Assembly: GCF_044647545.1 (NCBI RefSeq)
Contig: NZ_CP172818.1
From: Escherichia coli
Lineage (GTDB): Bacteria; Pseudomonadota; Gammaproteobacteria; Enterobacterales; Enterobacteriaceae
DNA length: 64,000 nt
Strand: one strand, 5' to 3'
Shown here: in pieces, positions 9,795 through 9,848 of the stretch
Layout of the letters: the number at the start of each line of letters is the position of its first letter
Numbering within the stretch: the stretch's first letter is position 1
The notes under the pieces: generated by a model
Databases searched by the model: none
The model's input: the letters and a program-made list of their open reading frames with translations, nothing else
Told to the model about the DNA's origin: nothing
Program-made: the position numbers and the translations under genes

Positions 9795-9848
9795 ATATCA
9801 GGTGTCAAGAATGGAGAGTTCTCGCTCTCCATTCTTGACACCTGATAT
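9795..9848. repeat. Perfect 24-bp-arm inverted repeat (hairpin/cruciform) with 6-nt loop
   Basis: atatcaggtgtcaagaatggagag-ttctcg-ctctccattcttgacacctgatat. Confidence 0.9.

Follow-up and report, generated by a model that had tools for sequence, protein, structure and literature searches.

A single-copy inverted repeat between ymgC and pdeG of Escherichia coli: a candidate 3′-end stem-loop of the ycgZ-ymgA-ariR-ymgC operon

REP elements and other hairpins at the 3′ ends of transcripts shield the upstream mRNA from 3′→5′ exonucleases, and Dar and Sorek reportedly found in 2018 that Rho-terminated transcripts are trimmed back to stable hairpins. A hairpin downstream of a gene can also be cut, as in the sib retroregulator of phage lambda, which is a structure downstream of int that is cleaved by RNase III. 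At the level of DNA, inverted repeats are subject to intrastrand template switching, in which one arm is copied from the other during replication, and quasi-palindrome hotspots in E. coli, at which template-switch mutations ‘perfect’ the repeat, have been studied in thyA and lacZ reporters. We describe here an inverted repeat in the spacer between ymgC and pdeG, located in a 64-kb stretch of E. coli DNA that was analysed as a whole (the window), and compare it with each of these systems. The palindrome is a real, single-copy feature of an ordinary kind, unannotated until now. Our leading reading, modelled from its position and fold and held tentatively, with somewhat less than even confidence, is that it forms a stem-loop that would define or stabilize the 3′ end of the ycgZ-ymgA-ariR-ymgC mRNA and separate this operon from pdeG.

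The left arm of the repeat occupies positions 9795–9818 of the window on the + strand (ATATCAGGTGTCAAGAATGGAGAG, 24 nt) and the right arm positions 9825–9848 (CTCTCCATTCTTGACACCTGATAT, 24 nt), giving the 5′ and 3′ halves, respectively, of the stem in + strand RNA. The arms are 100% complementary over the 24 nt and are separated by the 6-nt spacer TTCTCG (9819–9824, +), whose first and last bases can form a U·G closing pair to leave a loop of 4 nt. A first-pass annotation had described a perfect palindrome with 24-bp arms at 9795–9848, between ymgC and pdeG, and its coordinates, sequence and gene context proved exact. The palindrome is the longest perfect inverted repeat of the 64 kb, the runners-up having arms of 15 and 14 nt, and by our own arithmetic about 1e-9 such repeats would be expected in a random 64-kb sequence. 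When the 24-mer was searched for in the window with up to three mismatches, only the two arms matched, and 100 shuffled sequences gave no match at all. RNA folding of both strands, which the annotation had proposed as a check, gave very stable structures for the allele of this window (−44.9 kcal/mol for the + strand and −48.4 kcal/mol for the − strand; z = −10.9 for both), the corresponding DNA fold had −27.6 kcal/mol (z = −11.6), and the palindrome is the dominant predicted structure in the ymgC–pdeG spacer. The window is not from K-12; its spacer is identical to that of strain FDAARGOS_497.

The genes around the palindrome run in the order bluF (− strand), ycgZ (8493–8729), ymgA (8772–9044), ariR (ymgB; 9073–9339), ymgC (9452–9700), palindrome and pdeG (ycgG; 10032–11555), with everything from ycgZ onwards on the + strand. 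The hairpin starts 95 nt past the stop codon of ymgC, in the 3′ untranslated region of this last gene of the operon, and ends 183 nt ahead of its downstream neighbour pdeG, a CSS-EAL phosphodiesterase gene. The genes ycgZ-ymgA-ymgB(ariR)-ymgC are reported to be carried on a single polycistronic mRNA that is repressed by BluR (Tschowri et al. 2012, PMC3509220; PMC5491885) and induced by cold and blue light, expression at 37 °C being ∼46-fold below that at 25 °C (PMC5491885). Because the operon is one polycistronic mRNA, a transcript boundary must fall within the 331-nt spacer between ymgC and pdeG. No 3′ end, transcription start or RNase III site is mapped to the locus in the published supplementary data that we searched; among them, the Term-seq supplement of Adams 2021 has no 3′ end near K-12 coordinates 1217091–1217160, but was obtained at 37 °C, at which the operon is at the lower of the two expression levels just given, and so weighs neither way. 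The genes ymgC, ycgG (pdeG) and ymgF have been reported to be restricted to E. coli (PMC3509220). The 160 YmgC homologues that we found were all at least 74% identical, and the named ones were all from E. coli or Escherichia sp.; no homologue that could serve as an outgroup was found beyond these, and YmgC peptide patterns invariant across phylogroups had no match in 100,044 species-representative genomes. A coding role for the palindrome itself was considered and rejected, as the 50-aa ORF that spans it (9742–9894) is frameshifted by a 4-nt indel in a third of genomes.

Some further features of the neighbourhood deserve mention in their own right. The ariR–ymgC spacer (window 9340–9451) is distinct from the one that bears the palindrome. 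Just past the 3′ end of bluF lies a perfect 14-nt inverted repeat (window 6813–6850; ATACTTTGTACAAT and ATTGTACAAAGTAT, with 10 nt between the arms), which includes TTGTACAA, similar to the GTACA motif reported for the binding of BluR and MlrA (PMC3509220). Between the palindrome and pdeG there is an unannotated ORF of 26 codons (window 9909–9989, +; MEKILSSAWIFLMLSTMLSVDASASE), the product of which resembles a signal peptide. Conservation within the spacer is highest here, with three synonymous changes and, in two strains, an ATG>TTG swap of the start codon; the ORF could encode a leader peptide of pdeG or be the remnant of a secreted-protein gene. Its exact sequence is absent from the protein collection, and it is unannotated in NC_000913.3. 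In some B2-type strains (L004, which is E. coli Ecol_AZ161, and L109) pdeG is annotated as truncated, ‘missing N-terminus’, with the palindrome kept, and the similarity to the window stops ∼5 nt past the stop codon of the small ORF (query position 294, window 9994).

A BLAST search of 5,426 complete E. coli genomes with a 64-nt query centred on the palindrome gave matches in 4,951 of them, without exception at this locus; the two hits per genome are the two strands of one palindromic site. This comparison of orthologous loci had been suggested by the first-pass annotation, which had also raised the prospect of many genomic copies; that search came out negative, with one locus in each genome. 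The opinion that the repeat is not REP-like was borne out, since it is single-copy and unrelated in sequence to the REP family. A REP/BIME repeat, for which hundreds of copies would be expected, was accordingly rejected, the window too holding no further copy. In the plasmid collection there were only 14 matching records, all from non-mobilizable E. coli entries and several of them megabase-sized and evidently chromosomal, and neither phages nor viral contigs gave a match. An apex pattern, which describes the top of the hairpin, fits all the short and B2-type forms and would miss the third haplotype family described below. It had no match in the 100,044 species-representative genomes; the E. 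coli representative among these apparently lacks the locus, although 92% of complete E. coli genomes have it. From these sequence searches the palindrome is specific to E. coli and confined to one locus, with no other location found by the probes used. Membership of a known RNA family was also considered and rejected: all that Rfam 15 returned were matches below threshold to models of eukaryotic and viral miRNA precursors, the best of which scored 29.3 bits where 86 are needed, and these reflect a generic long hairpin.

Rearrangements were seen in a few strains at or close to the site. In E. coli A29 (NZ_CP028746.1; locus L014, 2990–3040) the end of an IS3 is joined to ‘...GAG TTCTCG CTCTCC...’, the apex of the palindrome, and all the DNA from a point within bluF as far as the left arm is missing; the small ORF of A29 has, in addition, lost 12 nt in frame between direct repeats ATGCTCTCT. 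In E. coli BH212 (L096, 4026–5360) an IS2 flanked by an AACAT duplication lies 25–30 nt past the ymgC stop codon and ∼65 nt upstream of the palindrome; positioned between operon and hairpin, it amounts to a natural construct parting ymgC from its hairpin. We considered and dropped the notion of an IS insertion hotspot: among the IS events examined, only the IS3 of A29 is at the apex, the IS2 of BH212 and the rest being elsewhere. A divergent lineage (L010 and L011; GCA_017278115.1, SRR23027952), the YmgC of which is only 79% identical, has neither the palindrome nor pdeG. Its homology to the window ends ∼20–30 nt before the palindrome (near window 9765–9775), and beyond this point come a small ORF and then genes encoding cytochrome b561-type, GAPDH and aldehyde dehydrogenase domains, which we take to be ydcA (the small ORF), cybB, gapC and aldA. 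The breakpoint may be an old rearrangement or an insertion boundary near the palindrome.

Natural variants were collected from the complete genomes, from 81 metagenome contigs harvested by their flank patterns and from further lineages, leaving out the low-coverage metagenome contigs L106, L110 and L111 as error-prone, and they reduce to 12 versions in three haplotype families. Family I comprises the 54-nt forms with a continuous helix of 24–25 bp. Its commonest allele is that of K-12, with one T·G mismatch and the sequence TTGACG in the right arm, and ∼3,000 records of this type lie one mismatch away from our window. The allele of the window (151 records) has A instead of the G found at 9840 in K-12 and most strains, and this G>A change in the right arm gives a T-A pair and a perfect repeat. 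A second perfect allele (71 records, from diverse strains and on at least two flank haplotypes) has T>C in the left arm, giving C-G, so that the two perfect alleles repair the one T·G pair from opposite arms. Family II, the 58-nt form of about a third of strains (∼1,700 records; B2, O55:H7 and others), is four bases longer than the 54-nt form in its left arm, which also has mismatches, and folds into an upper stem of 14 bp, three of them G·U, and a lower stem of 8 bp, with an internal loop between the two. Family III is a rare 58-nt form, found in ∼19 complete genomes, in which the upper stem is a perfect 14-bp palindrome (CAAGAATGGAGAAC / TATT / GTTCTCCATTCTTG).

Within the left arm, ATATCAG at the base and GAATGGAGA near the apex are invariant in all 12 variants, and the middle segment GTGTCAA is swapped in the 58-nt forms for a mismatched stretch that is 4 nt longer. 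The loop differs by lineage (TTCTCG, TTTTCG, CGCTCG or CTATTG) and is closed by a U·G or C-G pair. The short form is related to the long one by a multi-base change, namely two substitutions and a 4-nt deletion, which raises complementarity. A local tree, rooted with a divergent lineage and with few informative sites, places the imperfect long forms at the base and nests the perfect alleles within the K-12 type. As a whole, the palindrome is no better conserved than its flanks. The perfect symmetry to which the first-pass annotation drew attention is thus exact in this strain but not general to the locus, where it is the property of a minority allele, with 151 records at ≥ 99% identity; judged from the aligned sequences, it is a derived state, one G>A transition away from the majority allele, and the structure needs no such perfection.

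The variants pair differently on the two strands. In the 14-bp upper helix every one of the 168 cells in the table of 12 variants is a standard pair on the + strand, and at the five pairs that vary every change passes through G·U; one of these pairs is G-C, G·U or A-U across the three haplotype families. The pair that is mismatched in K-12, which lies below the upper helix, occurs as U·G, U-A and C-G. Because each G·U pair of the + strand becomes an A·C mismatch in the − strand, the antisense hairpin is generally the weaker one: the consensus fold has 23 pairs and −29.6 kcal/mol on the + strand compared with 17 pairs and −15.9 kcal/mol on the − strand, and the + hairpin was the more stable in all 10 of the variants first compared, including that of K-12 (−42.3 vs −37.5 kcal/mol) and those of the B2 type (−28.6 vs −16.8 and −25.8 vs −16.6 kcal/mol). 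In family III, by contrast, the two strands are about equal (−29.1 on + and −26.6 on − for L108; −25.6 on + and −25.9 kcal/mol on − for L112), and with flanks included the L108 allele favours the − strand (−32.1 on + vs −35.5 on −). By a rough count, ∼8–9 of the transitions in the stem keep the pairing of the + strand and two do not, for which a neutral retention of one third to one half would give p ∼0.01–0.09, the variants being interrelated. Covariation controls were not significant, shuffles reaching the observed score in 104 of 500 cases, and in no case were both partners of a pair scored as differing from the commonest state of that pair; G can pair with C as well as with U, which leaves such shuffle controls with little power at this site. 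A C>T mutation bias on the non-template, leading strand might account for part of the G·U pattern on the + strand. We take the comparison of variants as moderate evidence, short of conclusive, that what is retained is a sense-strand RNA structure. A DNA cruciform is argued against by the three G·T mismatches of family II, which would be expected to prevent its extrusion.

On the reading that we favour, that of a stem-loop at the 3′ end of the operon mRNA, the + strand RNA of the transcribed operon would fold into a very stable structure, either the continuous helix of 24–25 bp seen in this strain and in K-12-like strains or the 14-bp and 8-bp stems around an internal loop of other lineages. 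A stable stem-loop on the sense strand past the last cistron is what is expected of a barrier in a 3′ untranslated region, and the stem is kept in all 12 variants. Since the stem is followed by CCCGCC and no U-tract, the hairpin alone probably does not release RNA polymerase. We infer instead that transcription would be stopped by a termination factor in the C-rich, G-poor stretch just downstream of the hairpin, that 3′→5′ exonucleases would then trim the transcript back to the hairpin, and that the hairpin would halt them, so fixing and stabilizing the 3′ end of the operon mRNA and keeping the operon apart from pdeG. The AT-rich tract at 9849–9899 (+) is a candidate Rho-loading region, having the composition expected of one: the GC skew is −0.64 to −0.37 in windows covering 9825–9899, and the first 47 nt past the stem contain 11 C and 2 G. 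The continuous helix of family I would also be long enough to serve as a substrate for RNase III, and pdeG would start from its own weak, H-NS-covered promoter, of which the predicted −35 element lies in the right arm. Counting against this 3′-end reading are the non-significant covariation controls, conservation no higher than that of the flanks, the near equality of the strands in family III and the divergent lineage with ymgC but without palindrome or pdeG.

The first-pass annotation had thought of a strong bidirectional terminator insulating the operon from pdeG, of a protein-binding dyad and of the footprint of a small mobile element, and of these the insulation of the operon, recast as the formation of a 3′ end, survives best. 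A Rho-independent terminator, possibly bidirectional, that directly stops RNA polymerase would account for a very stable hairpin at the end of the operon, and a T-rich run, TTTATTTTAT, starts 10 nt past the stem; the statement that there is no flanking T-tract is right for the adjacent bases. However, G+C-rich sequence follows the stem directly on both strands, CCCGCC on + (CCCGCCTAA) and TGCGGAC on − (TGCGGACAT), a scan of 8200–10400 found no terminator-like site and no T-run within 0–2 nt of the stem on either strand, and, with ymgC and pdeG both on the + strand, no gene converges on the site; the variation, moreover, favours pairing on the + strand only. In addition, ymgC mRNA is not detectably polyadenylated and has been used as a non-polyadenylated control, belonging to a class almost entirely without Rho-independent terminators (Mohanty & Kushner 2006, PMC1636475). 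A canonical terminator is therefore improbable, and a bidirectional one is not what the site looks like. Somewhat better placed, yet still unlikely, is a role as an element of the pdeG promoter, in which the right arm would supply a sigma-70 −35 hexamer and a cruciform or H-NS-bound site would modulate it. RpoD-holoenzyme SELEX binding and H-NS have been reported in the ymgC>ycgG spacer, where TTGACG-19-TATTTT was proposed (Shimada et al. 2014, PMC3946193), and we could map this string in K-12 and in the window onto the right arm and the tract behind it, the −35-like hexamer at 9835–9840 (+; TTGACG in K-12, locus L009 4132–4137) and the −10-like TATTTT 19 bp after it at 9860–9865 (+). The G>A change that perfects the palindrome also turns the former into the consensus TTGACA. 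The proposal is nevertheless a sequence guess under a low-resolution SELEX peak, its 19-bp spacer is non-optimal, being outside 16–18 bp, and our scan of the + strand from 9700 to 10031 found no sigma-70 promoter; the 58-nt B2-type haplotypes do not conserve the −10 hexamer and read TGTTTA instead, and the Cappable-seq supplement has no start-site entry at the coordinate prefixes searched. Nor does a −35 hexamer require a 24-bp mirror copy, and the three G·T mismatches of the long forms would block extrusion of a cruciform. The promoter and 3′-end readings are compatible and do not exclude each other; the published proposal, weak as it is, does fit a picture in which the end of the operon and the start of pdeG fall within one 70-bp stretch. 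An operator-like dyad for a dimeric regulator, of pdeG or of the Rcs/BluR circuit for example, is suggested by the perfect two-fold symmetry in this strain and by the location in a regulatory spacer, but is very unlikely: arms of 24 bp far exceed normal operator half-sites, about a third of genomes have the 4-nt insertion and mismatches in one arm only, the motif has no second copy anywhere in the genome, and it is unlike the GTACA motif of BluR and MlrA. Resemblance to an RcsB box or BluR motif was judged by eye and dropped. Least probable of all, to the point that we would be surprised by it, is a small mobile or repetitive element (a MITE, REP-like unit or IS end), present as a remnant or as a solo copy. 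The inverted repeat does lie in an accessory, AT-rich, IS-prone region, and in A29 the junction with the IS3 end falls exactly at the apex; the single locus in each of 4,951 genomes, the lack of matches in phages, viral contigs and, for the apex pattern, species representatives, plasmid matches that are all chromosome-like E. coli, and the absence of an Rfam family all speak against it. No target-site duplication is visible in the flanks TGTCCGCA and CCCGCCTA, and with neither such a duplication nor related copies elsewhere a MITE or IS remnant was rejected.

The main rival to the 3′-end stem-loop is a repeat with no function, a quasi-palindrome that arose once in the E. coli-specific ymgC–pdeG segment, drifted and was repeatedly perfected by template-switch mutation; we consider this unlikely on balance, yet weighty enough to be kept constantly in mind. 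The T·G / T-A / C-G series is what such a quasi-palindrome should produce, an imperfect repeat in which mutations raise complementarity and match the opposite arm, and quasi-palindrome correction is recognized by just such repair of one mismatch from opposite arms, here by G>A (151 records) and by T>C (71 records). The gain in complementarity through the multi-base difference between short and long forms, the nesting of derived, perfect alleles among imperfect basal ones in the weakly resolved tree, the non-significant covariation statistics and the flank-level sequence conservation all agree with it. What it leaves unexplained is the asymmetry of the strands: template switching predicts an equal gain on both, whereas the non-Watson–Crick pairs that remain are, on the sense strand, nearly all G·U and not A·C, and the 14-bp apex is fully paired in all three haplotype families in spite of a surrounding spacer that differs by ∼10%. 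The two accounts are compatible; the variants may be supplied by templated mutation and filtered by RNA pairing. A bolder combination of both would make the hairpin a regulated processing switch, in which RNase III cuts the continuous helix and thereby sets the lifetime of the operon mRNA and the read-through into pdeG, at a template-switch hotspot where lineages repeatedly perfect a bulged stem and so change the regulation. The 54-nt forms, with 24–25 bp, have the roughly two turns, at least 20 bp, of uninterrupted double-stranded RNA that RNase III would call for, and the 58-nt forms have 14 bp, an internal loop and 8 bp; we put this switch forward as speculation and rate it as unlikely.

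If the hairpin does set the 3′ end and the stability of the operon mRNA, it would be part of the circuit that links blue light and cold to Rcs and biofilm formation, and would define how the operon is separated from pdeG, a gene for a c-di-GMP phosphodiesterase. There is nothing in this to surprise a specialist, and the main practical value lies in an unannotated feature to be added to the map of the locus. The allele series at a single pair (U·G, U-A and C-G, over thousands of genomes) is, besides, a natural case in which selection on RNA structure might be parted from template-switch mutation.

Set against the systems described at the outset, the ymgC–pdeG palindrome is closest to the REP/BIME-type and other stem-loops of 3′ untranslated regions, likewise having a stable hairpin without a U-tract past the last gene of an operon and the same proposed action as an exonuclease barrier; it differs from REP in being single-copy, unrelated in sequence and much longer in the stem, and its stabilizing action is a proposal. 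With Rho-independent terminators it shares a hairpin at the end of an operon, but it has no adjacent U-tract, and its stem is two to three times the usual length, as the first-pass annotation had already recognized in calling it much longer than a typical terminator's. Like the sib element of phage lambda, it would place a long double-stranded RNA stem past a coding region, where cleavage could control the stability of the upstream message; unlike sib, it is known from sequence and fold alone, and its long forms have an uninterrupted helix of only 14 bp. Like the quasi-palindrome hotspots, it has a majority allele with a single mismatch, corrected both ways, and a multi-base difference that raises complementarity; unlike the hotspots in thyA and lacZ, what is seen here is variation in populations rather than mutation rates, and selection for RNA pairing would give the same outcome.
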